A stretch of DNA of 64,000 bases. It comes from Candidatus Buchananbacteria bacterium. Its GTDB lineage: Bacteria > Patescibacteriota > Patescibacteriia > 2-01-FULL-39-33. Position numbers and translations under genes: made by a program. Position 1 is the first letter of the stretch; the number at the start of each line of letters is the position of its first letter. Positions 3,854 to 50,330 of the stretch are shown here, piece after piece. The notes beneath the pieces are model-generated. The model searched no databases. It had not been told where the DNA came from and saw only the letters and a program-made list of their open reading frames with translations. Where the stretch lies: NCBI GenBank assembly GCA_030650095.1, contig JAUSEE010000036.1, positions 6,490-70,489 of the forward strand, given 5' to 3'.

Positions 3854-6646
3854 TTAATTTTTAAGACCGATAAAATAAAATAAATCCTGCAATAAATCAT
3901 CTTTATAAACGCTTTCGCCGTTATTATTTTCAATTTTACTGGGATAAGAAACATTGGGAGAAACGCCATTTGGATATTCAACTTGGCCAAAGAACTTGTC
4001 ATTGTTGCTGCCGGCTTGTTTTTGAACCAGTAGGCTATAAGAGTCATAAGAATATTTAGGATAAAAAACGGCTTTTATCTTGCCTAAAATTCCCTTGGCT
4101 TCCACCTCTTTTTTGGTTAGATCAATTTTAAAAGGCAACTTATAAACCAATAAAATATCCTTATCTTCGCCCGGCTTAAGCGTCAGCCAATTGGCAAAAA
4201 CCGTTTTGTTGTTTTCGGTGTAAATTTTAGTTGAGCTGTCTGGATCAATTGTAGCCAGCTTTTCATTCAATAACCTTTCATCTTCTTCTAAATATTCATC
4301 AGGAGTTGTAAATTCGCTATCTTTGGGCCCCTTAAAACCTTCAGCCGAAATTAGCTGACTGCCTAACGGCACATAAACCCTAATAAAGCTTCTGTTGGGA
4401 GTGTCAGTAAAGATATTATCAATGGGGCCAAAATCACTTCTATGGATAACTAAACTATCCACCACCGAACCATCGGGAGAAATGGAGGCTTGATGATAAA
4501 TCTCCTGGTTGACCACCTCATCAGTTTTACCGCCGCCAATGTTGGTGGCTACCACGCTTAAATAATCCTTTTGAGCATTTTTCATCCGGCCGTCCCAATT
4601 ATTTTGAGCCACGAATGTCTGCTCGTTTTCATCTGTCATATAAATTTGAATGTCTTTTTCTTTCAAACCTTGGCTAAAAACAGAAACCAAGCCCAGCATC
4701 TTATCCGGAGTGACATCAAAAATATTTTCAATCAATTTAGGAGCCAAATCGCTTAATATTTTCTTGGGCTGTGTTTTATCATCCGCTTCCAATTCTATGC
4801 TTTTTTGGAGTTCCATTTCAAAATTGGCCGAGCTTATTGTTTTATTATAATCCGGCATTTCAATCGAGCCGATAACATCCAAGAGATTTCCCAGCCAATC
4901 AGAATTAATGGCAATTACCCCGTCGATAGTAGCGCCATCGCTTTTATTATAAAAATAAGTTATATTCTGCGCCGAGGTCGGCCAATTAGGCCACCAATTC
5001 GCATCTTGGAATTCCCAACGAGGATTGATTAGGGTTAGAGGCTCTGGCGCTTTGAGCAGTTTTGTAAAACCGGCTCTTAAATCGTAAGTTCCGCCGGCCG
5101 GCATGGTTACGCCTTCTAAATTGCCGTTTTTAAAATCAGCTACGGCCAAACTGCCCATAAATCCGCCGGTGGCCCTAAGCTCGTTATCATTTTGAAAAAC
5201 TATAAGATATTTTTTTAAACCATTATCACCCAAAAAATTTATGGCAAATTGCATCACTTCGTCGGACTTCTTTAGACTCTCTGTAAATTTTGGCAGATTC
5301 TCTTTTAACTTCAAGAATTTTTCCTGATTCTCTTGGGGCAAATGCTTGATATTTATTTTATCCAAATTTTCCTGAGCCGAAGTTATTTGAACTAAGGCTT
5401 CATGGCTACTGGCTTTAAAATTCTTGATTCTGGAAGACAGTGAAAAATCAGAATCAGCTGAAAATTCATTTAAGCCGGCAATTAAATATTCTCCGGCCTT
5501 AGTTAATTTTTCGCCTAAATCAAGCAAATTAGTTCCGCTTCTAAAAGTATTGTTTAAAGGGATAGTACCGGCCAAAACTGTTAAAAAAGATTTTATTTCT
5601 CCCAGCTGATCCTGGGCGGAAACAAAATTCTTATTGGCAGCAGCCAGATATTCTTCCGCTTCGCCCAGCTTAAAGTCGCTCAAAGCAGTCTGGGCTGATT
5701 CTAAGCTGGTTAAGGCTTCTTCGGCCGTGCCCAAAACCTGGCCTTTGGTTTCTTTGGCGCTTTCCAGATAAAAATAAGACCTAATCGGTATGGCTATCGC
5801 CAAGGCTATGGCCAAAAAAGCCAAAAGCGGCTTTAAAGACATTTTATCTATAGACCAAGCCGAAAATATTCGTTTAAAATCTAATTTCTTTTTTTCAGCC
5901 TTATATTTTACCGGCATTTCCTTAAGCGAAACTTTTTTTGGCGGAGGCGCAACCGGAATTTCTTTGGAGGTAAAATGAACAATTTCATCGCGCTTGGTGT
6001 ACCGACTTAACAAATTTAAGTAAGCGTAGCTGATCACTTGGCCAACAACCCAAAACATATTGCCCACCTTGGAGGCGAGAAAAACAACCAAATTTATAAC
6101 TGATATTTCTTGCCATAAATCAAGTTGGTTTATTTTATGCCCTTTTTTGGCTAACGGTATTTTAGGGGATAAATCAATTTTGTAAAAAGGCTTCTTAAGC
6201 CAGCGCATGGCTATGAGCCATGATTGTTTAAGAAAATTAAGTATCTCGCTTTCTTCCAAAGACAATAATTCAAAAACATGGATTTTCTCCAAAAACTCAC
6301 CCGCCGGCAAATCTTGATAGCTAAGATTAGAATTATTATCCAAAACCGGCTTAACCCGTTCTATATAACGCCTGGTTGATAGATTGAGCAAATGAGGAGA
6401 GGAATATTGATCCAGCGGGTGGCTGACTATGTTTATGCTGACAGAATTGCCCGAAGATAAGCTTATCGGAACATCAAAAAAATCATTTGATTTGGCATGA
6501 TCAAACATAACAACGCCTAGCGATTCATCGGGGCTGTTAAAAATCTTTTTAACTCGCTTTGATAATACCGCTTTTTTCTTCGCTAGCCTTTTCTTGACCT
6601 TGGTTTTTATGGTCTTTTTGGCTGCACTTTGTCTTTTGTGAGGCAT
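3854..6646 (-). CDS. Large membrane-anchored protein, possibly a DUF4012-like family member associated with polysaccharide loci
   Basis: 930-aa ORF with a Lys-rich N-terminus, a TM helix (LKPLLAFLAIALAIAIPI) and a large extracytoplasmic part containing ATGGFMGSLAVADFKNGNL. The DUF4012 assignment is from memory of the family and is uncertain. Confidence 0.5.
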   Translation of the reverse strand: MPHKRQSAAKKTIKTKVKKRLAKKKAVLSKRVKKIFNSPDESLGVVMFDHAKSNDFFDVPISLSSGNSVSINIVSHPLDQYSSPHLLNLSTRRYIERVKPVLDNNSNLSYQDLPAGEFLEKIHVFELLSLEESEILNFLKQSWLIAMRWLKKPFYKIDLSPKIPLAKKGHKINQLDLWQEISVINLVVFLASKVGNMFWVVGQVISYAYLNLLSRYTKRDEIVHFTSKEIPVAPPPKKVSLKEMPVKYKAEKKKLDFKRIFSAWSIDKMSLKPLLAFLAIALAIAIPIRSYFYLESAKETKGQVLGTAEEALTSLESAQTALSDFKLGEAEEYLAAANKNFVSAQDQLGEIKSFLTVLAGTIPLNNTFRSGTNLLDLGEKLTKAGEYLIAGLNEFSADSDFSLSSRIKNFKASSHEALVQITSAQENLDKINIKHLPQENQEKFLKLKENLPKFTESLKKSDEVMQFAINFLGDNGLKKYLIVFQNDNELRATGGFMGSLAVADFKNGNLEGVTMPAGGTYDLRAGFTKLLKAPEPLTLINPRWEFQDANWWPNWPTSAQNITYFYNKSDGATIDGVIAINSDWLGNLLDVIGSIEMPDYNKTISSANFEMELQKSIELEADDKTQPKKILSDLAPKLIENIFDVTPDKMLGLVSVFSQGLKEKDIQIYMTDENEQTFVAQNNWDGRMKNAQKDYLSVVATNIGGGKTDEVVNQEIYHQASISPDGSVVDSLVIHRSDFGPIDNIFTDTPNRSFIRVYVPLGSQLISAEGFKGPKDSEFTTPDEYLEEDERLLNEKLATIDPDSSTKIYTENNKTVFANWLTLKPGEDKDILLVYKLPFKIDLTKKEVEAKGILGKIKAVFYPKYSYDSYSLLVQKQAGSNNDKFFGQVEYPNGVSPNVSYPSKIENNNGESVYKDDLLQDLFYFIGLKN

Positions 6647-6752
6647 TACAAAATTGTTCTTCTGATTTAAGAAATTTTTCTCTTTAGATAAGTATTATTA
6701 TAACATAAACCGGCAAGTTGGAACAACTTAATTAAATATATCTGGGGATAAA

Positions 6753-6790
6753 AAAATAAACAGGCTTGTACCGCCTGTTTATGCTTTAAT
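6753..6790 (-). terminator. Rho-independent terminator downstream of the glycosyltransferase at 6799-7905
   Basis: Minus-strand hairpin aaacaggcggtacaagcctgttt followed by a T-run. Confidence 0.5.
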
Positions 6791-6798
6791 CTAAAAGG

Positions 6799-7905
6799 TT
6801 AAGATTCGTATTGCCCCAGGGTTTCTAAGGCGCATTTTTCCCAAGAATACTTTTTTAAATTGGCTTGGCCCTTAATTTTCAATGCTTGAAGAAGTTCTTG
6901 ATTATCTAAGGTATTAGAAATAGACTTAGCTATTTCAGTTTCATTTTCCGGATTAAAATAAACAACGCTATCGCCCAATATCTCCGGCAGGCAAGAGGCC
7001 GATGAGCTTAAAACCGGCAAGCCGTAGCTCTGGGCTTCCAACGGCGGCAAGCCAAAGCCTTCAATTAAACTTGGGAAAACATATAAAGCGGCAGTTTTAT
7101 AAAGACATGATAATTTTTCATCATCCAAATAACCGGTAAAGATAACTCGGCCGCTTAAACTTAGCGTTTGGGCGGTTTGTTCCAACCTCTCATAAAAATA
7201 ATTTTTCTGGCCCACCAAAACCAACTGGATGTCCCTATTCAGACTTTTAAACGCCTGGAGCAACTTTTCTAAATTCTTATGCGGATAAGCCGAGCCGACA
7301 TAAAGCAAGAAATCTTTTTTAATGCCCAAATCAGACTTTAGCCGGGCGCAATCAGCCTGGCCATCTTGGGGCAAACCAACCCCTTCATAGGTAACGCTTA
7401 TTTTTGAGGGATTTATTTTTAATAATTTTATAATGTCTTTTTTACTGCAGTCGGAAACAGTAATTATTTTCTTAGCTCTTTTGGCCGTATTGTTTACCAC
7501 TAAGCGATAAAAAAATAATTTTATCTTATACATTATCGGATTCAAGGTGGTGGCTCGGCTATGGGGATAATGGGAAATTATCAGATCATGAATGGTAACA
7601 ATAAACGGGCGCCGATAAAAAACAGGCGCATTAAAATGAGTAAAATGCATTAAATCAAGTTGGTATTTTTTCAACAGCCGCGGAAAAAATATTTGTTCTC
7701 CTAAGCTGTAAGCCCTGAAATCAGCCAAAACCTTTTTAAAATTTTTGCTTTGCGGCTGATAATCATTAAAATTATTTTGGGCCAAAAAAATAAAATACTG
7801 ATTTTTAGAATCAATTTTTTCCAATTGTTTGATTAGGTTTTCGCTGTAGCGTCCCAGACCGCCGTGTCTGGCGCCGTATAAGCGGGCGTCAATTCCTATG
7901 CGCAT
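6799..7905 (-). CDS. Glycosyltransferase family 4 (GT-B fold)
   Basis: 368 aa with the C-terminal GT4 signature EGFGLPPLEAQSYGLPVLSS. Confidence 0.8.
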   Translation of the reverse strand: MRIGIDARLYGARHGGLGRYSENLIKQLEKIDSKNQYFIFLAQNNFNDYQPQSKNFKKVLADFRAYSLGEQIFFPRLLKKYQLDLMHFTHFNAPVFYRRPFIVTIHDLIISHYPHSRATTLNPIMYKIKLFFYRLVVNNTAKRAKKIITVSDCSKKDIIKLLKINPSKISVTYEGVGLPQDGQADCARLKSDLGIKKDFLLYVGSAYPHKNLEKLLQAFKSLNRDIQLVLVGQKNYFYERLEQTAQTLSLSGRVIFTGYLDDEKLSCLYKTAALYVFPSLIEGFGLPPLEAQSYGLPVLSSSASCLPEILGDSVVYFNPENETEIAKSISNTLDNQELLQALKIKGQANLKKYSWEKCALETLGQYES

Positions 7906-8015
7906 ACCTTGATTTTAAACCTTGACAAAAAAGTTATTTTATGATAAGTTACATTATCAGTATATAGTTTAATCAGAACTTTAACAACATTTACAACCAG
8001 AAAGAGGAAAATAAC

Positions 8016-8877: not shown

Positions 8878-9987
8878 TTATTGTCCCAAAAATAACTCCA
8901 GGGTTTCTTTGGCCGTCTGCTGCCAGTTATATTTTTTGATATTATCCAATCCGCTCCTTACTAACTTTTCTCTTAAAACTTGATCTCCTAAAATAAACTC
9001 CATGGCCTTAACAATATCGTTTATATTGTAGGGATCCACCAATAAGCCGGCGCCGGAAACCACTTCCACTTGCGAAGAATTAGAGCCGCCAATCACCGGC
9101 ACGCCACAAGCCATAGCCTCAACCAGTGGCAAGCCGAAACCTTCGTAATAAGACGGGTAAACAAACAAATCAGCCAAATTGTATAATCCCCTTTTGTCTA
9201 TTTCGTCCACATAACCGATTATCTTAATCTTATTACTGGCTTTGGCTAATTTTATAATCCTCTTTGCTTTCCAACCAACTCCTCCGCCAATCACCAAATA
9301 ATGATCTGTTTTTAATTTACTGAAAGCTTCAATGAGGCTTTCTATATTTTTCCTGGGCTCCAAAGTGCCCAAATACAAAATGAATTTGCCGGGCAATTTA
9401 TATTTTTTTTGCACCCTGTCCAGTTCAACTTGATTTGTAATAATTTGAAATTTTTGATCAACGCCTTCATAAATCACTTTTATTTTTTCTGGATTTATAC
9501 TTAACAGATCAATTAAATCCTGTTTGGTATTTTCCGAAACGGCTATAACGGCATCGGCCTCTTGGATTATTCTTTTAGCCGTAAGCACCTGATGCCAAAA
9601 GCGGGATTTTAAAGTCCAAAACTGGGGGTATCTTAAATAAGACAAATCATGGACAGTGATTATTTTCCGGCAATCATTCGAGAGGGCAGAGAAGTTGATA
9701 TTGGGCATAAAAAAAACATCAACGCCACCGATTATTTTATCTATCTTCGGCTTGTCGGCTAAAAGAAGCGATAAATTAAAAATTTTATTGGAATGGCTAA
9801 AACCAGCCGAGCGCACATTCTGATGATCAAACCGGGGCAGATTAACTTTCCGGGAACTGTTATAAAAAAGAATGTATTCATTTTCCTTATCTAATTCAAA
9901 AATTGATTTAAGCAAATTAAAGGCATACCAGGAAATGCCGGAATAATTATCAACCATTAGACATCTGACGTCAATCCCTATTTTCAT
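8878..9987 (-). CDS. Glycosyltransferase family 4
   Basis: 369 aa with signature EGFGLPLVEAMACGVPVIGG. Confidence 0.8.
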   Translation of the reverse strand: MKIGIDVRCLMVDNYSGISWYAFNLLKSIFELDKENEYILFYNSSRKVNLPRFDHQNVRSAGFSHSNKIFNLSLLLADKPKIDKIIGGVDVFFMPNINFSALSNDCRKIITVHDLSYLRYPQFWTLKSRFWHQVLTAKRIIQEADAVIAVSENTKQDLIDLLSINPEKIKVIYEGVDQKFQIITNQVELDRVQKKYKLPGKFILYLGTLEPRKNIESLIEAFSKLKTDHYLVIGGGVGWKAKRIIKLAKASNKIKIIGYVDEIDKRGLYNLADLFVYPSYYEGFGLPLVEAMACGVPVIGGSNSSQVEVVSGAGLLVDPYNINDIVKAMEFILGDQVLREKLVRSGLDNIKKYNWQQTAKETLELFLGQ

Positions 9988-11074
9988 AATTTTCTGTCAT
10001 TTTTGATAAGAGGCTGTTAACCTTATTTTTAAAATTATCAACGCTGAATTTTTCGGCTTGCGATCTTATAAAATAAGGATCGTATTTTTGGCTGTTGAAT
10101 CTGATGACTTTATCGGCCAATTCCTCCCACCATTGTTCCTCAAAAAATTCGCCTGTCTGGCCTTCGATTATAGTTTCGGTGGCGCCGCCCGATTTATAAG
10201 CTATCACCGGCCGGCCGGCCGCCATAGCCTCTACAGCCGTAATGCCGAAATCCTCTTCTTGCGGATTCAAATAAGCCAGGCAATTGGCATAAAGGCTTTT
10301 TTTCTGCTCGTCTGACACTTTGCCCAAAAATTTTATATTTGATTTGGCCAAGTTTTTTAAATATTTCATTTCCGGACCAACGCCAAAAATCTTCAGCGGT
10401 ATGCCCAGCCGGGAAAAAGCTTTGACGGCCAAATCTATTTTTTTATAAGGCACCAGCCGGCCACCGGCCAAATAATATTTCTTCGGCCTGGACGAAATAT
10501 AAAAACTGCTAACATCAACCGGCGGATAAATAATCTCGCTCTCCCGATTATAATATTTTTTAATCCTGCTTTGAACAGTTTTAGAATTAGCCACAAAAAA
10601 ATCAACCCGATCAGAGGCTAATTTGTCCCACTGCCTCAGCTTTCTTAAAGTAAAAGGCAAAATCATTTTAACCAAAGGATTCACTTTTAAACCCTCAACA
10701 TAAGAATAAGTATCGGTCCAAAGAAACCTGGTGGGAGTATGGCAATAACAAATATGCAAACTGCCCGGCTTGGTTATTACTCCTTTGGAAAAAGACGAGG
10801 CGCTGGAGATGATCAAATCATAATCTTCTAGATTATGGCTCTCGGTTGCTAGCGGCATCAGAGCCAGCCACCATTGGTATCTTTTAACCCCCAACGGAAT
10901 CTTCTGTAAAAAAGAAGTTTTTATTTCCTTGTCCCTAAAGAAAGCATTGGTATTGTTTCTATCAATCAGCAACGTAAAAATAGGCGCTTCCGGGAACATT
11001 TCCTTGAGCGCTATTAAAACCCTCTCTGCTCCGCCATCTTGGGCCAGATGATCGTGGACTAAAGCAATTTTCAT
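9971..11074 (-). CDS. Glycosyltransferase family 4
   Basis: 367 aa with signature EDFGITAVEAMAAGRPVIAYKSGGATETI. Overlaps the downstream glycosyltransferase by 17 bp, which suggests translational coupling. Confidence 0.8.
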   Translation of the reverse strand: MKIALVHDHLAQDGGAERVLIALKEMFPEAPIFTLLIDRNNTNAFFRDKEIKTSFLQKIPLGVKRYQWWLALMPLATESHNLEDYDLIISSASSFSKGVITKPGSLHICYCHTPTRFLWTDTYSYVEGLKVNPLVKMILPFTLRKLRQWDKLASDRVDFFVANSKTVQSRIKKYYNRESEIIYPPVDVSSFYISSRPKKYYLAGGRLVPYKKIDLAVKAFSRLGIPLKIFGVGPEMKYLKNLAKSNIKFLGKVSDEQKKSLYANCLAYLNPQEEDFGITAVEAMAAGRPVIAYKSGGATETIIEGQTGEFFEEQWWEELADKVIRFNSQKYDPYFIRSQAEKFSVDNFKNKVNSLLSKMTENYENRD

Positions 11075-43895: not shown

Positions 43896-43897
43896 AG

Positions 43898-43971
43898 TGG
43901 ATGATACTGGATTCGAACCAGTGACCTTTCGGACGTGAACCGAACGCTCTAACCAACTGAGCTAAACATCC
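43898..43971 (-). tRNA. tRNA-Val (anticodon CAC)
   Basis: Minus strand reads GGATGTTTAGCTCAGTTGGTTAGAGCGTTCGGTTCACGTCCGAAAGGTCACTGGTTCGAATCCAGTATCATCCA. The cloverleaf folds with one T:T mismatch in the acceptor stem. Anticodon loop is TTCACGT. Confidence 0.8.
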
Positions 43972-43989
43972 TTGATGTGCTTAAAAAAC

Positions 43990-44170
43990 AATCCTCTTTT
44001 TATTATCAATACACATCAGACCTTACGGTCTGAACGCTCTATCCTGGGTTGGCGTAAAATCCTGCGCCAGCTCGGATTTTTCGACGCTCAACTGCACCTC
44101 GCTTTAGCTCGGCTTGTTTTGCTTCCAACCCGTCGCTAAAAAGCGACCCAACTGAGCTAAACATCCTTGA
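43990..44170 (-). pseudogene. Degenerate partial duplication of tRNA-Val (5' 20 nt identical, D and anticodon region diverged, about 90-nt insertion, no T-arm)
   Basis: The 23-mer ccaactgagctaaacatccttga is directly repeated at 43953-43975 and 44148-44170. The upstream copy continues as …CGCCAACCCAGGATAGAGCGTTCAGACCGTAAGGTCTGA but cannot form a full cloverleaf. Confidence 0.5.
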
Positions 44171-44180
44171 TTTATATATT

Positions 44181-44216
44181 GTCATCCCGACCAAGCAAAG
44201 CGCGTGGAGGGATCCC
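44181..44216. repeat. Half-copy of the GTCATCCCGA… palindromic repeat abutting the GIY-YIG stop codon
   Basis: gtcatcccgaccaagcaaagcgcgtggagggatccc. Confidence 0.55.
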
Positions 44217-44217
44217 T

Positions 44218-44651
44218 TAAAAATTAAACATTTCATCACTCAAATCCCTCCACGTAGGATTTAAAGTTTTAATTAAATTTTGCTTCTTTTCTCTTCGCCA
44301 TTTTTTGAGTTGTTTCTCCCTAGCCAGTGCTTCACCAATATCCGTATTGTATTCATAAATGAACCCGACCTCGCTCTAAAGAGCGAGGTATCTGGGCGGT
44401 TTCAAATGGAAGGTGTCGGCTCCGCCGACATATTTCTCCTCACACTGCCCTTCATCCCCTGGCTTAAAAGCCAGGGGTATTCGGGCAGCAACATTATAAA
44501 CTAATTTTTTACAATCATATTTTTTAGTAAAACCATCAATCAATTTTTGTTTATGCTCCCAAATCCTCTTTTCTAAATTATTAGTAATACCTATGTACAA
44601 AGTGCCACTCTCACTAGCCATGATGTAAATATAATAATATTTATTATTCAT
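44218..44651 (-). pseudogene. Small GIY-YIG nuclease-family gene interrupted by an in-frame insertion of about 141 bp carrying a TAG stop
   Basis: N-terminal GIY-YIG (YYYIYIMASESGTLYIGITNNLEKRIWEHKQ…GFTKKYDCKKLVY). Then an insert containing the hairpins cccctggcttttaagccagggg and acctcgctctttagagcgaggt and an in-frame TAG. Then the frame resumes with the canonical C-terminus EYNTDIGEALAREKQLKKWRREKKQNLIKTLNPTWRDLSDEMFNF. The supplied ORF (44376-44651) stops inside the insert. Confidence 0.6.
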
Positions 44652-44663
44652 AAATTAGTTTTT

Positions 44664-44745
44664 AAGGGATCCCTCGACTTCGCTCGGGATGACAATAAGT
44701 GTGACTCGGGATGACAATCAATAGAACTCGGGATAGCCTAATTTA
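44664..44745. repeat. Tandem partial copies of the GGGATCCCTCGAC…CTCGGGATGAC repeat
   Basis: gggatccctcgacttcgctcgggatgacaataagtgtgactcgggatgacaatcaatagaactcgggatagcc. Confidence 0.55.
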
Positions 44746-44821: not shown

Positions 44822-44862
44822 AAATAAAAAAGCGGGCACTTGGTGTACCCGCAAAAATCTAA
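44822..44862 (-). terminator. Intrinsic terminator downstream of the Ubl gene, preceded by the conserved ttttggcaaataaaaaagc motif
   Basis: Minus-strand hairpin gcgggtacaccaagtgcccgc plus ttttttatttgcc. Confidence 0.5.
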
Positions 44863-44891: not shown

Positions 44892-45461
44892 TTAAAGTGC
44901 CAAAATTTCAGCGATGGCAGCGAGCTTGCCGGCTTCATCAACTGGGAAAGCGATGCCATTAACCAAAATCGCCAGCAATTCATCCTGATCGGTAGAAAGC
45001 TCTACATCAATTTCGTCTCCGTTGCCGACCAAATCCTGCAAATTGGCGTCCTCTTCGTCAACCGTGACAGAAATTACGCTATCCGGATCAATGCCGACAA
45101 CATCGCGAAGAATGTTGGCAATGGTATCTGGAGTTTCCAAAGCATAATCTTGGCCATTGACCGTGCAAGTAAGCACACCGGAGCCATCATTACCCTTGAT
45201 CTTGGTGATAATCAAAATGACATCTCCATTACAAAGTGGCGTGGTCTTGATGCTGCCGACATAGCCCTTGTCCGGATCAATTTCTGCAACATTGGAAAAC
45301 ATCTTTTTATTCACGCGGACTTCTCGGCCGCCAGTCAATGCAACCCACTCAACTTCTGGCTTAATTTCTTCGGCCTTGACAGCCACATCCATAACCGTGC
45401 CACCATCAGGAACGGTAACGTCAAGAATTGGACCTGGAACAACCATAATCTGCACGTTCAT
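44892..45461 (-). CDS. Ubiquitin-like protein with two ThiS/MoaD-type beta-grasp domains and a C-terminal tail of about 20 aa after a conserved Gly (candidate BilA-like Ubl)
   Basis: Shine-Dalgarno sequence acaggagaagcagaaATG. Domain 2 (LTCTVNGQDYALETPDTIANILRDVVGIDPDSVISVTV…LVGNGDEIDVE…LLAILVNG) fits the ThiS/MoaD/Ub beta-grasp pattern. Domain 1 (VQIMVVPG…TVMDVAV…LCNGDVILIITKIKG) is similar. The tail IAFPVDEAGKLAAIAEILAL follows the putative terminal Gly. Confidence 0.55.
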   Translation of the reverse strand: MNVQIMVVPGPILDVTVPDGGTVMDVAVKAEEIKPEVEWVALTGGREVRVNKKMFSNVAEIDPDKGYVGSIKTTPLCNGDVILIITKIKGNDGSGVLTCTVNGQDYALETPDTIANILRDVVGIDPDSVISVTVDEEDANLQDLVGNGDEIDVELSTDQDELLAILVNGIAFPVDEAGKLAAIAEILAL

Positions 45462-45517
45462 TTCTGCTTCTCCTGTTTGTTTAAAAATGTTCTAAATAGA
45501 AAGTTAAAAATCGGTAG

Positions 45518-46213
45518 CTAATCTGAGGCAACTCCGTCACCGATAATCACCATCGGACGAGCGCAGACAATCAACTCCTTTTGATAATCCTCGCCATTAA
45601 ACCATTTAATCAGCTTCCAAACTGCTACGGAAGCAATATAGGAAACAGTGGGTGAAATAGACCTGTTAGTGCAAGGCGATTCCTCCGCTTCTTCGTCGCT
45701 ATAAAGTGTACTTTCCCACATCCGAATATCGGAGAGGTTCGATGGTAGAATAGCATAAACCCGGCCGTTGTCAATGGCCATTCTGGTTTCTACCATAAAT
45801 TTAACCGGCAACTTGAATTTTAGAGCGCCGTCCCAAATATCACGGCGTATATCCATGGAATCAACCATTAAGAAAATTACGCCTTTTAATTTGGAATTGG
45901 CGGTTACCGCTTCATTATGAGCGGTAATTCCTATGCCGGTAGCTTCCAAGATTATTTCCTGCAAAGCCTCAACCTTGGGCCGGCCGACATCTTTCAGGCG
46001 ATAAACCTGGTTAGGCAAATTATGATCTTCAACTTCGTCAAAGTCATAAACATGGATATCTTGGACGCCCATCTTAGCCAGGAGATAAGCCACATAACTG
46101 CCGGTGGCTCCGACTCCGATAACATGGACTTCATCTTGGAATTTACCTGGGTCAAACAAATCCAATTGCCGCCAATAATCAACCCTGACAATTTCTTGTT
46201 CTTGATTTGCCAT
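45518..46213 (-). CDS. E1-like adenylyltransferase (ThiF/MoeB/UBA family)
   Basis: Nucleotide-binding motif VHVIGVGATGSYVAYLLAKMGVQDIHVYDFDEVEDHNLPNQ, the E1/ThiF Rossmann signature. Cys-containing catalytic region (…EESPCTN…). Start at MANQEQE (46213) or at an upstream Met (46246) that overlaps the JAB gene. Confidence 0.7.
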   Translation of the reverse strand: MANQEQEIVRVDYWRQLDLFDPGKFQDEVHVIGVGATGSYVAYLLAKMGVQDIHVYDFDEVEDHNLPNQVYRLKDVGRPKVEALQEIILEATGIGITAHNEAVTANSKLKGVIFLMVDSMDIRRDIWDGALKFKLPVKFMVETRMAIDNGRVYAILPSNLSDIRMWESTLYSDEEAEESPCTNRSISPTVSYIASVAVWKLIKWFNGEDYQKELIVCARPMVIIGDGVASD

Positions 46214-46220
46214 ATCTTCA

Positions 46221-47126
46221 TTATTCCAAGGAAGCCCAGATGCCATCCCATTCTCGAACAATATCAAATTCAGCTGGCGGAGAGAAATTGCCATTACTGT
46301 CCTCTGCCGGAACAAGATCGCCTTCGGTTAAGGCCTCTTCTTGTCCCTCTGAATTACCTTCATGAAAAACATGTCTGCCCTTCCGGCGAGTGTAGACTGG
46401 AGACTCTTGTCCCTTTCTATGCCAACGATACATCGGTTGTCCGGGAGCTGGCCCAGAAGACAGACTCTTAATAACTGCCTGTTGATATTGATAATTAGGA
46501 ACTGTCTGAATAAAAACCTCTCTGGAAACTTTTTCCGCCACTTGAGCTTGCCAATATTCCTGCCTTTGAGCGTCAACAGGAGTGTAAATCTGCCAAGGAA
46601 TATCATGCCAAACAACCCCGCGCTTATAATCAAACAAGGAAAATTCAGCCCGGCCACCGCGTCCGAAAATGCCGCGCAGAAACCACTCATTGTGGCTGAA
46701 GAGCTTCATTTGATCATTATCTTGCGATGACGCATCAGTGGAATTGCTCGGATGGACATGGCCCCAAAACAAAATACTGGAGCAAAGTTCCGGATTTTCC
46801 CTGGCTAAATCAGTAAACAAATCAGCCAAGCCGTCTTCGGTCATTTCCGTGGTAGCACCGTGGACTGTCTGATTGATCAAGAAAATCTGTTCTATTAAAA
46901 ACTCATACTCGGCCAAAATCCTGACACTGCCCAGCCAGCCGATTTCATCACTGCCGCTTAATTGGGCGATAGCGAGCATATCGCTGTAGGCTTCGGGTTT
47001 GATAAGAACTTTGGGAATTGATTTTTGGGAAATAGTTGTTTGTCTGGGCTCGAATGGATGGGGAGAGAATGCCTCCGCTCCCGAAGATTTATATTGAGTT
47101 GACGCAACATAAGGATGTTGATGCAT
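46221..47126 (-). CDS. JAB/JAMM (MPN+) metalloprotease, candidate deubiquitinase-like peptidase
   Basis: Exact JAMM motif E-x(n)-HVHPSNSTDASSQD, that is H-x-H-x7-S-x2-D. The start codon overlaps the upstream stop (TGATG). Shine-Dalgarno sequence aaggag 9 nt upstream. Confidence 0.75.
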   Translation of the reverse strand: MHQHPYVASTQYKSSGAEAFSPHPFEPRQTTISQKSIPKVLIKPEAYSDMLAIAQLSGSDEIGWLGSVRILAEYEFLIEQIFLINQTVHGATTEMTEDGLADLFTDLARENPELCSSILFWGHVHPSNSTDASSQDNDQMKLFSHNEWFLRGIFGRGGRAEFSLFDYKRGVVWHDIPWQIYTPVDAQRQEYWQAQVAEKVSREVFIQTVPNYQYQQAVIKSLSSGPAPGQPMYRWHRKGQESPVYTRRKGRHVFHEGNSEGQEEALTEGDLVPAEDSNGNFSPPAEFDIVREWDGIWASLE

Positions 47127-49483
47127 CACTGGGCTAACTCCTTTTTGGTTTTTTCTACCGCCGTCCAATACTTAAATATTTCACTGCCAGCCAGATCATC
47201 CAAATTGACAGTTTCCAAATATTGAATCGCTAGTGAAGTTATGGCCGCAAACTGATATTCGGCGATAAGCTGGGCAATCATTTCTTGAATATTGCCCAAA
47301 CACGGCTCGCCCCTAGAATTAACATGGGGATGGTTAATGTTATAACCATTATAACCGCCGGCGGCCTGCCTGGTGGTATTGAAAAAAAGAAGGCCGCCAT
47401 TAGCACCATCCAAAAATATTTCTATGCGGAATTTGCCGATATCAAAAGTGAATTCTTTACCGGCTTTGTCCTTGCAAGTAATGTAAATATTGTAAGTGTG
47501 CACAATCAGCTTGCCATCCTTGGCCGTAACATTTTCCACTCCTTCAATATCAAAAAGACGATTATACTCGGTCTCAAAACCGGTTTTATCACTGGCTGTA
47601 ATATTTTTCAAAATCTTCAATTTCTGCTGCGCCTCTTTTTCTTGGCGTATTTTATTGACTAATTCTTTCTGTAAAGCGGCAACCGCCTTAGTCCATTCAG
47701 TAATAGACCTACTTAGATCGAGGCTGGCCCTTTCCTGCCTATCTTGGCAGAGGTTAACATAGCCGTCCATCGCCCTTCGGCGACGAATTTCTTTAATCGC
47801 CTTATCGCGCTCAATTTTTTCTGCCGGTGTCTTATTCAGCTCTATTACCGTTAATTCCAAAATACGACGATAAATATCAATCCCACCACTCATTTCCCTA
47901 TAGCCCAAGGGGATATAAATATACAAATTATGGTCCAATAACTCCGCTACGGTAAAAAGCGATTCGCTATCTATAATTTCCACACCCATGTCGATTGGTT
48001 TAAAATACTGCCAACCATAACGACTATTATTAGTACTAAAGCCGAAAATTTTGTCCGGCATATCAACTTTGTCCGATAAAGTATTATTAGCTGGTGCGGC
48101 ATGTAGCCAAATATGGAATAAATTATCATTAATAGGCTGAAACATTTTTCTAAGTCCTTGACAATTATGACAAATAATTTTCTTATTTAAAACCGGCAAA
48201 AGAATGTTCTCGGTCTCGGTTTTCATTTTAGCCATATTACCGACACGGTTAGAATTATTGAAAATAACCACCTGAGGAGCATTAATCAAAGCCAATCTTT
48301 CCTCGGAGCTCAATTTAAATATATTAGCTGTTTCCTCTAGTACCTTTTCCAAAATGGCATAATCATCTGATCTGTCCTTATGGACAGCATCATGGAAAAT
48401 ATAAAGATTATTGCCAATAACCTCGGCTACCGCATAACCCTCTGTTTCTGCTATAACTATGCCCAAACCAGAGGGCAAATAAGACCCATCGGCACAACCA
48501 ATCCTATGACCCCACATTATTGGCGGAGTTTCAACTTCACAATTGCCAGAGGGAGCCGACCAGATATTAATATGCAGAAATCTGCCAGCTTTGTCATCGG
48601 GGATAGGCTCAAAAAGATGTTGGTGAGGCACCCTAACTATGGCGCCATGAAAAATTTCTCTCGGCAATATTCGCTCAATAATGTCTTTCAATTTATCTTG
48701 CACCATTTCGCCATCCCAACTTTTAAAGATAATATCCATCGGCAAAAGCTTTCGCGCTTCTTCAACACTAGCAGCCAAAAGAACAGGCAAATATTTTTTG
48801 ATCTGCTGACTTATTGCCCGGCCATAAACTTCATCCGGACAATTAGGAATTTTTCTAAAACAAATCAGGCGTTTGGTTGGGTAATATTCAATATCAAGCA
48901 ACAAATCACAATCAGTTGTTAATTCGGCTTCAGCCATATTCAAAAATCTGCCCAAAACTATATTGAGCTGATCTGTAACTGGGCTAATACTTAATGTATC
49001 GTCTACAAGACCTTCATGGAAAACAATTTTTTTAACACCGCTGGCCTCAGTTAAAATATCCCTGTATAAATCAGGATAATACTGGGGCGAGAAATGTCTC
49101 ATAACATTGTTTAATAATTGCGCCCAATGATCGCATCTGGTGCCCTTGGGTTTGGAAACTGTCAGATCGGGGTATTGTATTTTTACTTCCTCCACGGGAG
49201 TTTCTTCTGCTATTTCATCAGCCACTTCTTCATCTTCAAATACTGAGAAATCAAAATTAACAGTATTGGAAGGTGCCACTGCCAATTTTACTATACCGGG
49301 AATACTGGTTTCGCTATGTTCAAAAACATCAAAGCCCAAAATACCCAAAGCGTTAACAATATTATTTTGCTCAAAAACCAAACCATTCCAGCCATCAATT
49401 TCCATTTTTACAAAAGATATTTGAGCCACTATGAGTTTTTTTTGCTTTTTATTAGAGACATCTGCAATAAAGAAATTACGCAT
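47126..49483 (-). CDS. Large protein (785 aa) with a C-terminal E2/UBC-like domain, plus about 600 aa of unassigned N-terminal sequence and a coiled-coil
   Basis: Shine-Dalgarno sequence aaaggagaaaactATG. The C-terminus …GYNGYNINHPHVNSRGEPCLGNIQEMIAQL… matches the E2 catalytic signature HPN-x3/4-G-x-[IP]-C-L. First gene of a four-gene operon with translational coupling. Confidence 0.65.
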   Translation of the reverse strand: MRNFFIADVSNKKQKKLIVAQISFVKMEIDGWNGLVFEQNNIVNALGILGFDVFEHSETSIPGIVKLAVAPSNTVNFDFSVFEDEEVADEIAEETPVEEVKIQYPDLTVSKPKGTRCDHWAQLLNNVMRHFSPQYYPDLYRDILTEASGVKKIVFHEGLVDDTLSISPVTDQLNIVLGRFLNMAEAELTTDCDLLLDIEYYPTKRLICFRKIPNCPDEVYGRAISQQIKKYLPVLLAASVEEARKLLPMDIIFKSWDGEMVQDKLKDIIERILPREIFHGAIVRVPHQHLFEPIPDDKAGRFLHINIWSAPSGNCEVETPPIMWGHRIGCADGSYLPSGLGIVIAETEGYAVAEVIGNNLYIFHDAVHKDRSDDYAILEKVLEETANIFKLSSEERLALINAPQVVIFNNSNRVGNMAKMKTETENILLPVLNKKIICHNCQGLRKMFQPINDNLFHIWLHAAPANNTLSDKVDMPDKIFGFSTNNSRYGWQYFKPIDMGVEIIDSESLFTVAELLDHNLYIYIPLGYREMSGGIDIYRRILELTVIELNKTPAEKIERDKAIKEIRRRRAMDGYVNLCQDRQERASLDLSRSITEWTKAVAALQKELVNKIRQEKEAQQKLKILKNITASDKTGFETEYNRLFDIEGVENVTAKDGKLIVHTYNIYITCKDKAGKEFTFDIGKFRIEIFLDGANGGLLFFNTTRQAAGGYNGYNINHPHVNSRGEPCLGNIQEMIAQLIAEYQFAAITSLAIQYLETVNLDDLAGSEIFKYWTAVEKTKKELAQ

Positions 49484-49692
49484 GAGTTTTCTCCTTTTGG
49501 CTGTTTTTATGCCCTAGAACCATTGTTCTAAAACTTTTTTGGTTGTCAATGATCTATCTCCTCTTAAACAAAAAGAGGAAAGGCTAAAAAGACAAAATTT
49601 GCCTGTTTAGCTTTTCCTCCTGATTTGAAATTATGTAACTCTTTACTCTAACAAAATAGGTGATTTATGTCAACCAAAAAATATGTTTTTCT

Positions 49693-49771
49693 GTCATTGC
49701 GAGCATAGCGAAGCAATCCCATTTAATCAAATACGGGATTGCTTCAGTCGCTTAAGCTCCTTCGCAATGAC
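49693..49771. repeat. Palindromic repeat element (GTCATTGCGAGcatagcgaagcaatccc …spacer… gggattgcttcag…CTTCGCAATGAC)
   Basis: 79-bp composite inverted repeat at the upstream boundary of the Ubl/E1/JAB/E2 island. Confidence 0.65.
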
Positions 49772-49802
49772 AATTATTGTTATATTTTATCTAATTTAAA
49801 AC

Positions 49803-49832
49803 AAAATACCCGCTACTGCGGGTATTTTTTAA
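49803..49832 (-). terminator. Intrinsic terminator downstream of the cupredoxin gene
   Basis: acccgcagtagcgggt hairpin followed by attttgtttt on the minus strand. Confidence 0.5.
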
Positions 49833-49856
49833 AACTGTCAATTTTGGCTAAAATGG

Positions 49857-50330
49857 CTATTCTACAATCAGCTGGCCAAACATGCCATTGGCTCGATGCT
49901 GGCCGACACTGCAATAATACTCAAATGTTCCGGCCTGGTCGGCTATAAACTCCACCGTCTTAGATTCTCCGGCTTTTATTTGTCCGGTATTAACGCTAAA
50001 CTCATCTATTAAAAAGTCGTGAAAACCTTCTTGATTGATGAAAACAATTTTCACCTTGTCGCCCTTTTTAACTTTCATTTCTTTCAAAGAGAAAGAATAA
50101 TTGGCGCCCGAAACCGTAAACTCCTTAACCGCCGGTGCTGTCTGGCTGCTATTTAAATTGGTGTCCGGAGTTTCATTATTTGTATTATTATTTTCATTAA
50201 TTATGTTTTGGGACATTGCTTGAGAACCACCTTCAATCGGGCCATTATATGGTCGTTTGTAGAAATAAAAAGCACCAGCCAAGATTATAATAATTACAAT
50301 GATCATTAACAATATTTTGTTTTTTGACAT
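49857..50330 (-). CDS. Membrane-anchored cupredoxin (type-1 copper protein, plastocyanin/azurin-like)
   Basis: N-terminal TM helix. Copper ligands are in the typical arrangement: H (GFHDF), C (YYCSVGQH), H and M (NGMFG). Confidence 0.75.
   Translation of the reverse strand: MSKNKILLMIIVIIIILAGAFYFYKRPYNGPIEGGSQAMSQNIINENNNTNNETPDTNLNSSQTAPAVKEFTVSGANYSFSLKEMKVKKGDKVKIVFINQEGFHDFLIDEFSVNTGQIKAGESKTVEFIADQAGTFEYYCSVGQHRANGMFGQLIVE

Follow-up and report, generated by a model that had tools for sequence, protein, structure and literature searches.

Do bacteria of the Patescibacteria, or candidate phyla radiation (CPR), carry a ubiquitin-like conjugation pathway of their own, and what would it be used for? 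Three families of bacterial operons that conjugate ubiquitin-like (Ubl) proteins have been characterised, namely type II CBASS, Bil and Bub, and all of them are tied to phage defence (Bub by context). Here, we analysed a stretch of 64,000 nucleotides from a Candidatus Buchananbacteria genome (assembly GCA_030650095.1, contig JAUSEE010000036.1; hereafter the window), in which an earlier reading of the sequence, the original prediction, had pointed out four genes for E2-like, JAB/JAMM, E1-like and Ubl proteins and had proposed a Bil- or Bub-type system on a GC-richer island. Structure prediction, a fold search, the comparison of profiles and the conserved order of the genes all uphold the four-component operon, and we consider it about 75% probable that it encodes a self-contained thioester-type Ubl conjugation cascade. 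The open reading frames (ORFs) lie where they had been placed, from 49483 to 44892, as four co-directional genes on the minus strand that form one transcription unit (Table 1), and the product of gene 1 is identical to NCBI protein Q7K65_03685. Translational coupling was also confirmed: genes 1 and 2 overlap in a TGATG in which the stop codon of the former and the ATG of the latter have one base in common, and 7 nt separate the stop of gene 2 from the ATG of gene 3, two genes that overlap by 1-4 nt in relatives. Gene 4 starts 56 nt downstream of gene 3 with its own ribosome-binding site (RBS). The motifs quoted in the original prediction, HPHVNSRGEPCLGN in gene 1, HVHPSNSTDASSQD in gene 2 and VIGVGATGS...DFDEVEDHNL in gene 3, are all present.

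The E2 component is the part of the operon that decides whether a conjugation cascade is plausible, and it is hidden from sequence models. Full-length gene 1 has no match in Pfam, NCBIfam, PADLOC or PHROG, and when the E2-like domain was scanned in 95 family members no Pfam family covered it, including UQ_con and Prok-E2_A to Prok-E2_E; the Pfam matches in these members were weak (E >= 1.8e-4) and mostly to coiled-coil families. AlphaFold2 prediction of the domain with a 54-sequence alignment gave a predicted local distance difference test score (pLDDT) of 93.3 and a predicted TM-score (pTM) of 0.87, and the model shows the alpha/beta fold that defines the UBC/E2 superfamily, made up of an N-terminal helix, a four-stranded antiparallel sheet, an active-site loop and C-terminal helices, with a Cys at the catalytic position about 10 residues past an HPN-type motif. 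In hhalign, HPHVNSRGEPCL paired with HPNINSNGSICL of UBE2D2, with Cys728 on the catalytic Cys85, VNLDD on PNPDD, and H718-P-H-...-C728 corresponding to H75-P-N-...-C85, while HMMER paired the same active site with HPNIDEKGQVCL of UBE2L3. The comparison with UBE2D2, like those with Rpn11 and E. coli ThiS below, is supportive only. The only PDB sequences reached by the E2-domain profile were nine versions of UBE2L3, matched from helix 1 to the catalytic Cys with E values of 0.4-0.7 that are not significant alone. The conservation is strict: among 148 family representatives, Cys728 and Pro719 are kept in all, His720 in 146, Asn760 in 145 and Asp763 in 144, and the elements kept at the catalytic Cys are P-H, G-x-x-C-x-G and N-x-x-D. 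The position of the first His of the motif (H718) is mostly Ala across the family.

The original prediction had named a C-terminus of another fold, or one without a catalytic Cys, as what would speak against it, and neither was found. The assignment of this domain as a UBC fold with a Cys at the catalytic position, as judged from the predicted model, holds up. The Asn of the canonical HPN is replaced by His, and the E2 chemistry may therefore differ. The same replacement would suit a non-catalytic RWD/UEV-like scaffold, with the Ubl serving non-covalent signalling or being conjugated by the E1 directly in a SAMP-like manner; archaeal SAMPylation needs no E2. A Cys present in 148/148 representatives, together with the conserved P-H, G-x-x-C-x-G and N-x-x-D, is unexpected for a scaffold, and we regard this explanation as very improbable. 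The domain is also widespread. With a profile of the last 155 residues of gene 1, at least 2,746 clusters (50% identity) were retrieved at E <= 1e-3; for 1,661 of them the E value was 1e-10 or better. A word-index homologue search with full-length gene 1 had returned 3 relatives only, an undercount from candidate selection since more exist, and it is this selection that makes the family look as rare as "4 in 5.8 billion".

Gene 3 is the component most readily recognised. A single ThiF domain (Pfam, E 2.7e-23; 82.8 bits against a cut-off of 28.1) covers nearly the whole 231-aa protein, which shows the Rossmann-type adenylation domain, the GxGxxG and the Asp/Lys/Asp motifs of the ThiF/MoeB/E1 superfamily. 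A profile of four gene 3 sequences matched UBA3, MccB, UBA7, UBA1, ThiF, MoeB, BubCD and UBA5 in the PDB, and GxGAxGS, DxDxVExHNxxNQ, K and DxM are invariant in 11 distinct operons. The same operons all keep Cys181, in an S-x-C context, as the candidate thioester Cys; a PDB search with the C-terminal half of the protein to place this residue was uninformative. Given that the best NCBIfam and Pfam matches of gene 3 are ThiF and MoeB-type enzymes, the operon could be read as a sulfur-carrier or thiocarboxylate module like ThiS-ThiF, MoaD-MoeB, CysO-Mec+ or QbsE-QbsD, in which the JAB protein would only trim the carrier. However, the NCBIfam ThiF/MoeB equivalog scores are far under their curated cut-offs (68.9 against 159 and 63.3 against 275). 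The PRTRC_ThiF model was similarly far from its threshold (35.2 bits against 144.75); with no ParB and a syntenic chromosomal context, a PRTRC mobile-element cassette was rejected.

Gene 2 has no match in a Pfam, NCBIfam or PDB sequence search, and its PADLOC JAB match is weak (E 0.006). Its sequence nevertheless contains the whole zinc site of a JAB/JAMM (MPN+) protein, since the H-x-H-x7-S-x2-D motif is preceded by the putative catalytic Glu61, within EIGWLG, and the five residues E61, H123, H125, S133 and D136 are invariant in the 11 distinct operons. Alignment by hhalign with the MPN domain of Rpn11 gave an E value of 1.1e-3 over 135 columns, with the catalytic residues in register. By these sequence features gene 2 is a JAB/JAMM metallopeptidase with a complete predicted site.

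The original prediction had described gene 4 as a tandem beta-grasp protein. Two beta-grasp-like halves are indeed recognisable, but the reading as a tandem modifier had to be revised, because Gly90, the conserved and presumably reactive residue, lies between the halves. A profile search with gene 4 found 47 relatives, all of which end a first domain of about 90 residues with (I/V)-x-Gly-Asn. The window protein itself matches Pfam ThiS below threshold (16.7 bits against 22.5; a weak match over residues 101-153). Its relatives go further: the short relative P0021 matches Pfam ThiS with 5e-9 (37 bits) across a unit of the first-domain type, and the second domain (103-151) of P0019, a homologue with 50% identity to the window protein, matches ThiS with 2e-6 (28.7 bits) and Ub-Mut7C with 1.4e-5. 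The C-terminal strand of the modifier aligns to the C-terminus of E. coli ThiS. Both halves are probably beta-grasp domains, as far as these sequence matches tell. A PDB sequence search had also suggested a transcription activator-like (TAL) effector (E 1.3e-9), which was dismissed as an artefact of repeats of less than 5 bits each summed over one 35-residue stretch.

What follows Gly-Asn differs strongly between relatives. Some carry an extension of about 100 residues, as in the window, or of 160-210 residues; L002, L003, L016, P0040 and P0051 have only N or NR after the Gly and end in GN* or GNR*; and P0021, P0049 and P0050 continue with another copy of the unit. Because relatives stop at Gly-Asn, differ in the extension or repeat the unit, we take it as most likely that the second half of gene 4 is an extension that can be removed and is no part of the mature tag. 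Ubl modifiers act through an exposed C-terminal Gly; the invariant Gly90 would take that place once cleavage has exposed it. QbsE/QbsD and CysO/Mec+ follow the same principle, in that a JAB protein removes residues after the C-terminal Gly of the carrier, which together with the ThiS matches of gene 4 relatives counts in favour of the sulfur-carrier explanation. Yet the modifier here ends in x-G, not G-G, and head-to-tail tandem modifier units have no parallel among sulfur carriers. The clearest such precursor was observed at locus L017, where a poly-Ubl of three head-to-tail 73-residue units (9690-10418), each ending in VKGN and encoded by a 219-nt DNA repeat (2.9 copies, 90% identical), accompanies a gene 1 homologue with two E2-like domains (6001-7932), and a 770-aa gene of unknown function lies directly upstream. 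The short-form Ubls (L002 6673-6975, L003 3762-4163, L016 6747-7040) were seen to carry long basic Pro/Ala/Lys/Arg-rich N-terminal tails, probably disordered, which the long forms, including that of the window, do not have.

The four genes are kept together. In all 18 loci examined the order is E2-JAB-E1-Ubl (the L014 contig ends before gene 4), a conservation far beyond chance. Labelled loci belong to Buchananbacteria, Moranbacteria, Saccharibacteria and Parcubacteria, at least four CPR lineages, and apart from unlabelled metagenome contigs our searches met the family in CPR bacteria only. These loci were located by searching for the operon itself, and the 5 genome loci recovered with a 4-sequence alignment are a count of loci, separate from prevalence in CPR genomes. 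The gene content also bears on the sulfur-carrier explanation: the UBC-fold domain with its invariant Cys is strictly co-inherited with the other three genes, and no gene for a sulfurtransferase, rhodanese, ThiG, MoaE or CysM was present in any locus. Because of the co-inherited Cys-E2 and the missing sulfur-transfer partners, we judge a sulfur-carrier role to be the least probable of the explanations considered. One contig in the set, L010 (CAYIBK010000017.1), is labelled "uncultured Gammaproteobacteria bacterium". Its operon proteins score the same as those of L005, a contig with UvrB and UvrA products 84-89% identical to those of the window, and the label is probably a binning error because the contig is syntenic with the Buchananbacteria loci.

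The E2 domain occupies only the end of gene 1. That it is fused to a large N-terminal region, as the original prediction stated, was confirmed; that this architecture is peculiar to the present gene was not, since it is the norm of the family. A typical member has about 450 aa, with an N-terminal domain, one module, a coiled coil and the E2 domain. The N-terminal domain was aligned in 21 family members, in which G34 and G63 are nearly invariant. Residues 255-406 and 407-555 of the window protein are two copies of a module of about 145 residues, which is present in 117 of the 148 representatives (one copy in 92, two in 22, three in 2 and five in 1), and the L002 homologue has four. Neither the N-terminal domain nor the modules have a Pfam or PDB sequence match, and a word-index homologue search with a 10-module alignment found nothing. 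The full-length AlphaFold2 model has a pLDDT of 66.8. A match of the full-length profile to S-adenosylmethionine decarboxylase in the PDB (E 0.63) was dropped as an identity for the module because the fold search was unsupportive. Because the operon has no E3 gene and varies most in the N-terminal array, we infer that this array selects substrates or mediates oligomerisation. In addition, window positions 48749-49186 (residues ~100-245), a region of low model confidence, align with the first module of the four-module L002 homologue without the conserved residues of the module, and may be a degenerate third module.

Taken together, these components suggest a cascade in the following order. The JAMM peptidase encoded by gene 2 would cut the gene 4 precursor after Gly90, giving a beta-grasp modifier of about 90 residues with a free C-terminal Gly, and the 99-residue extension would be discarded. 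The E1 encoded by gene 3 would adenylate the modifier Gly with ATP, probably forming a thioester on Cys181, and the modifier would then be handed to Cys728 in the UBC domain of gene 1. The N-terminal domain, the two modules and the coiled coil may constitute a built-in substrate adaptor or oligomerisation platform, and gene 1, acting as an E2/E3 hybrid, would attach the modifier to target lysines, a modification that the JAMM peptidase could also reverse. The modifier ends in ...K-G, and after trypsin digestion modified lysines should therefore carry one residual Gly (+57 Da). What speaks for this cascade was seen directly: which four components the operon encodes and how they are conserved, their catalytic residues, their translational coupling, a gene order that is strict, and where the Gly-Asn site lies. 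Several points weigh against it. The canonical HPN Asn is a near-invariant His in this family; genes 2 and 4 match no curated family, nor do the N-terminal 630 residues of gene 1; fold matches of the module are weak or absent; and the beta-grasp fold of gene 4 rests on sub-threshold matches in the window together with above-threshold matches of homologues. Cys181 is presumed to sit at the end of the E1 crossover loop, and the substrate-adaptor role of the gene 1 modules, like every chemical step of the cascade, is a proposal.

We further compared the operon with the characterised systems. Like Bil (types I/II; BilA Ubl, BilB E2, BilC JAB, BilD E1), it places the four functions on separate genes, here in the order E2-JAB-E1-Ubl, with a Cys-type E2 and no E3, and the Bil E2 is thought to choose its targets itself. 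However, BilD is a large IAD-AAD-CYS E1, whereas the E1 here is a 231-aa single adenylation domain, and the E2 here bears about 630 extra N-terminal residues of modules and coiled coil. The extra beta-grasp domain of Bil Ubls precedes the conjugated domain, while here it comes after the reactive Gly and would be cut off. Sequence models gave no cross-match with Bil, and the present family has so far been seen only in CPR bacteria. With Bub (6E/DUF6527) it has in common a beta-grasp Ubl, a UBC-fold E2 and a small homodimer-type E1, and in type I Bub (BubAB) the JAB cuts the precursor after a conserved Gly, a logic that the Gly90-Asn91 site would share. In contrast, Bub proteins are fused as Ubl-E2 and JAB-E1 (type I) or E2-E1 (type II), and those of the present family are unfused in 18 loci; Bub has the DUF6527 serine protease (BubE), and the Pfam family DUF6527 was found neither in the four operon proteins nor in the called neighbours of loci with gene tables. 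Bub moreover works through Ser/Tyr oxyesters without a catalytic Cys, whereas here a Cys occurs in every E2 representative and in the E1 of 11/11 operons. Type II CBASS has no Ubl, conjugates the CD-NTase itself and fuses E2 to E1 (Cap2), unlike the unfused proteins here, and no gene for a CD-NTase or CBASS effector was present in any locus examined. These results indicate that the family is distinct from Bil, Bub and CBASS, to whose definitions it does not conform, and the Bil/Bub-type label was not supported. Genes 1, 2 and 4 are also detected by none of the PADLOC, NCBIfam and Pfam models for known E2 or Ubl families of bacteria. No operon of this architecture appears in the 2006 classification of prokaryotic E1/E2/JAB operons (classes 6a-6e) or in the Bil and Bub papers, and we found no relevant paper on a Ubl system of Patescibacteria/CPR in a literature search whose coverage of subscription journals was incomplete.

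Some traits are closer to the eukaryotic machinery. Eukaryotic E2s (UBE2S, UBE2D, UBE2L3) carry H-P-x-[VI]-N-S-x-G-x-x-C-L with spacing identical to that of gene 1, and N-x-x-D of gene 1 aligns to their NPDD. The precursors are also eukaryotic-like, with a C-terminal extension or with head-to-tail repeats that have one extra capping residue; ubiquitin-ribosomal-protein fusions and polyubiquitin genes follow the same precursor logic. The differences are equally plain: the E1 is minimal and ThiF-like, not multi-domain of the UBA1 type; the HPN Asn is His; the modifier, which ends in x-G and not in the G-G of ubiquitin, shows no sequence resemblance to ubiquitin that could be detected; partners of the RING, HECT or proteasome kind are missing; and the E2 is fused to bacterial-specific modules. 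E2/E3 hybrids of the UBE2O and BIRC6 type show no homology to gene 1 beyond the UBC domain, and the adaptor role of its N-terminal modules is a presumed one.

Given that all characterised bacterial E1/E2/JAB operons are linked to anti-phage immunity, a Bil- or Bub-type defence, with the Ubl conjugated to a phage structural protein or an immune effector, has to be weighed against an endogenous role. The chromosomal setting bears on both. The original prediction had placed the operon in a GC-richer island, bounded by repeats and next to a tRNA. None of the island traits was borne out: the GC content over the operon (0.37-0.46) lies within the range of the window (0.35-0.51), and the sole flanking repeat is a single 22-nt match of 73% identity. 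A tRNA-Val does exist, as had been noted, but about 920 nt away and with a GIY-YIG insertion between. The mobile-island framing also gave way, because the same slot between SOD/cupredoxin genes and uvrB is occupied in four related contigs; the order SOD/cupredoxin - operon - uvrB was seen in L001, L006 and L011 as in the window, and where the L005/L010 contig begins at gene 1 the uvrB-uvrA side is kept. On account of this synteny the island hypothesis was rejected: the operon is vertically inherited at a fixed locus and is not a GC-rich island. Compared with the window proteins, those at syntenic loci are 80-88% identical for UvrB, 72-80% for SOD, 77-85% for the E1, 59-72% for the JAB protein, 55-59% for the Ubl and 43-52% for gene 1. 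In other lineages the operon stands beside recR, rplU and secY (L016) or next to a ClpB-like ATPase (L017).

These identities also speak for phage defence, since the presumed specificity part of gene 1 evolves fastest, at 49-52% identity compared with 77-85% for the E1 at the same locus, and a module number of 1 to 5 with varied Ubl precursors is a pattern common in conflict systems. Against it, membership in Bil or Bub fails (single-domain E1, no fusions, no DUF6527, Cys not Ser in the E2); PADLOC matches neither gene 1 nor gene 4, and only its generic JAB and E1 models match genes 2 and 3; and nine neighbour proteins at three other loci (L004, L007, L009) have no PADLOC match. Viral contigs contained no relatives, and genes 1, 2 and 4 had no match in PHROGs. 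A fixed position among housekeeping genes in diverged Buchananbacteria, and beside recR/rplU/secY in L016, is further unlike patchy defence islands. We consider a Bil- or Bub-type defence rather unlikely, and lean slightly towards an endogenous or stress-related role in CPR cells at somewhat short of even odds. The fixed syntenic position, the housekeeping neighbourhoods and the lack of a defence-island signal fit that endogenous role; neither the argument from synteny nor that from variability is strong, because CPR genomes are compact and the loci were found via a search for the operon. A bolder picture, which we put at somewhat less than even odds, is that this is the first sighting of a widespread ubiquitination-like pathway, more eukaryote-like in logic than Bil, Bub or CBASS, that is used for endogenous protein tagging in ultra-small bacteria without most of the known regulatory machinery and not as a phage-defence island. 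The eukaryote-like traits on which it would draw, likewise put forward with reserve, are the Cys-type E2 (HPx...C-L, N-x-x-D), the fusion or poly-Ubl precursors and a JAMM maturase/deconjugase.

Signals for expression were found on both sides of the operon (Table 1). The sigma-70-like matches upstream of gene 1, at 49673-49645 and 49549-49522, are consensus matches only; an RBS (aaaggag) lies 7 nt ahead of the gene 1 ATG; and the terminator of the upstream gene is at 49828-49803. The intergenic region 5' of gene 1 (49484-49860, 377 nt) showed strong RNA folding (minimum free energy -111.6 kcal/mol, z = -7.9). It includes a near-perfect palindrome of about 80 nt (~49695-49775, GTCATTGCGA...TCGCAATGAC), and a hairpin with a U-run (~49565-49620) between both promoter-like sites, which could be an attenuator or an element like the repetitive extragenic palindromes (REP-like). 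No Rfam family matches the 377-nt region; an Rfam "Leu leader" match on the opposite strand was rejected as below gathering (30 against 50 bits), and the Rfam scan found the tRNA alone.

Several features of the surroundings were also noted. On the gene 4 side, tRNA-Val(CAC) is located at 43897-43971, its 5' end is duplicated exactly over 24 nt (43953-43976 = 44148-44171), and a GIY-YIG-like ORF of 91 aa (44376-44651) between the tRNA and the operon is bracketed by 24-nt inverted repeats (44204-44227 / 44655-44678) and CTCGGGATGACAAT repeats. In the relatives L001 and L006 gene 4 and uvrB are only ~140-190 nt apart, and because of this short gap the ~0.9-kb segment between operon and uvrB looks like a lineage-specific small GIY-YIG element inserted at the tRNA. 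At three loci outside the Buchananbacteria, a divergent gene for a TrmB-family regulator, absent from the window, was seen 0.9-2.9 kb upstream of the operon (L004 507-1412, L007 2181-2987, L009 2515-3258) and may be a dedicated regulator. A 2.3-kb stretch between a 23S_rRNA_IVP-family gene and the gene 1 homologue of the Moranbacteria contig L004 (1992-4288, identical in L012 35-2307) has no ORF of more than 143 aa and no called gene; it matched no Rfam family at gathering and showed no similarity to the upstream regions of the other loci.

Table 1. Positions of the operon and its predicted features in the window.
Feature	Position	Strand	Remark
Promoter-like sites and structured 5' leader	49484..49673	-	sigma-70-like consensus matches and RNA folding
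Gene 1	47126..49483	-	ORF, 785 aa; multidomain E2-like protein
Gene 1 N-terminal domain	49259..49483	-	residues 1-75; conserved across family
Gene 1 repeat module 1	48266..48721	-	residues 255-406
Gene 1 repeat module 2	47819..48265	-	residues 407-555; pLDDT 75-92 in full model
Gene 1 coiled-coil hairpin	47594..47827	-	residues ~553-630
Gene 1 C-terminal UBC/E2-fold domain	47129..47593	-	residues 631-785
E2 active-site motif HPHVNSRGEPCLGN	47291..47332	-	gene 1 residues 718-731; Cys728 codon 47300-47302
Gene 2	46221..47126	-	301 aa from ATG; JAB/JAMM (MPN+) metallopeptidase, variable C-terminal tail
JAMM motif H123-x-H125-x7-S133-x2-D136	46719..46760	-	from sequence; quoted motif HVHPSNSTDASSQD
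Gene 3	45518..46213	-	231 aa from ATG; minimal single-domain ThiF/E1-type adenylyltransferase
Codon of E1 Cys181 (S-x-C), candidate thioester Cys	45671..45673	-	invariant in 11 distinct operons
Gene 4	44892..45461	-	189 aa; predicted Ubl precursor
Gene 4 residues 1-90, ThiS-like beta-grasp modifier ending Gly90	45192..45461	-	47 homologues, ThiS match in relative
Gly90-Asn91, predicted JAB processing site	45189..45194	-	invariant G-N
Gene 4 residues 91-189, C-terminal extension	44892..45191	-	second ThiS/Ub-Mut7C-like beta-grasp without terminal Gly, plus tail; cleavage from the modifier predicted
Intrinsic terminator of operon	44832..44852	-	GCGGGTACACCAAGTGCCCGC then TTTTTT; strong

Current Pfam, NCBIfam and PADLOC models miss the family, and annotation pipelines therefore label its genes, ThiF apart, as hypothetical. 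It is nonetheless abundant in metagenomes, given the number of clusters (at least 2,746) of its E2 domain. With its different architecture, a fourth family would broaden what is known of prokaryotic ubiquitination; it would stand out by its minimal E1, by the module arrays built into its E2, by Ubl precursors that are cleavable or polymeric, and by thioester-type residues. The origin of polyubiquitin-style precursor genes and of E2/E3-hybrid enzymes could be tested on it in a tractable way, and the Patescibacteria, about whose cell biology little is known, would gain a first candidate for a protein-tagging pathway.

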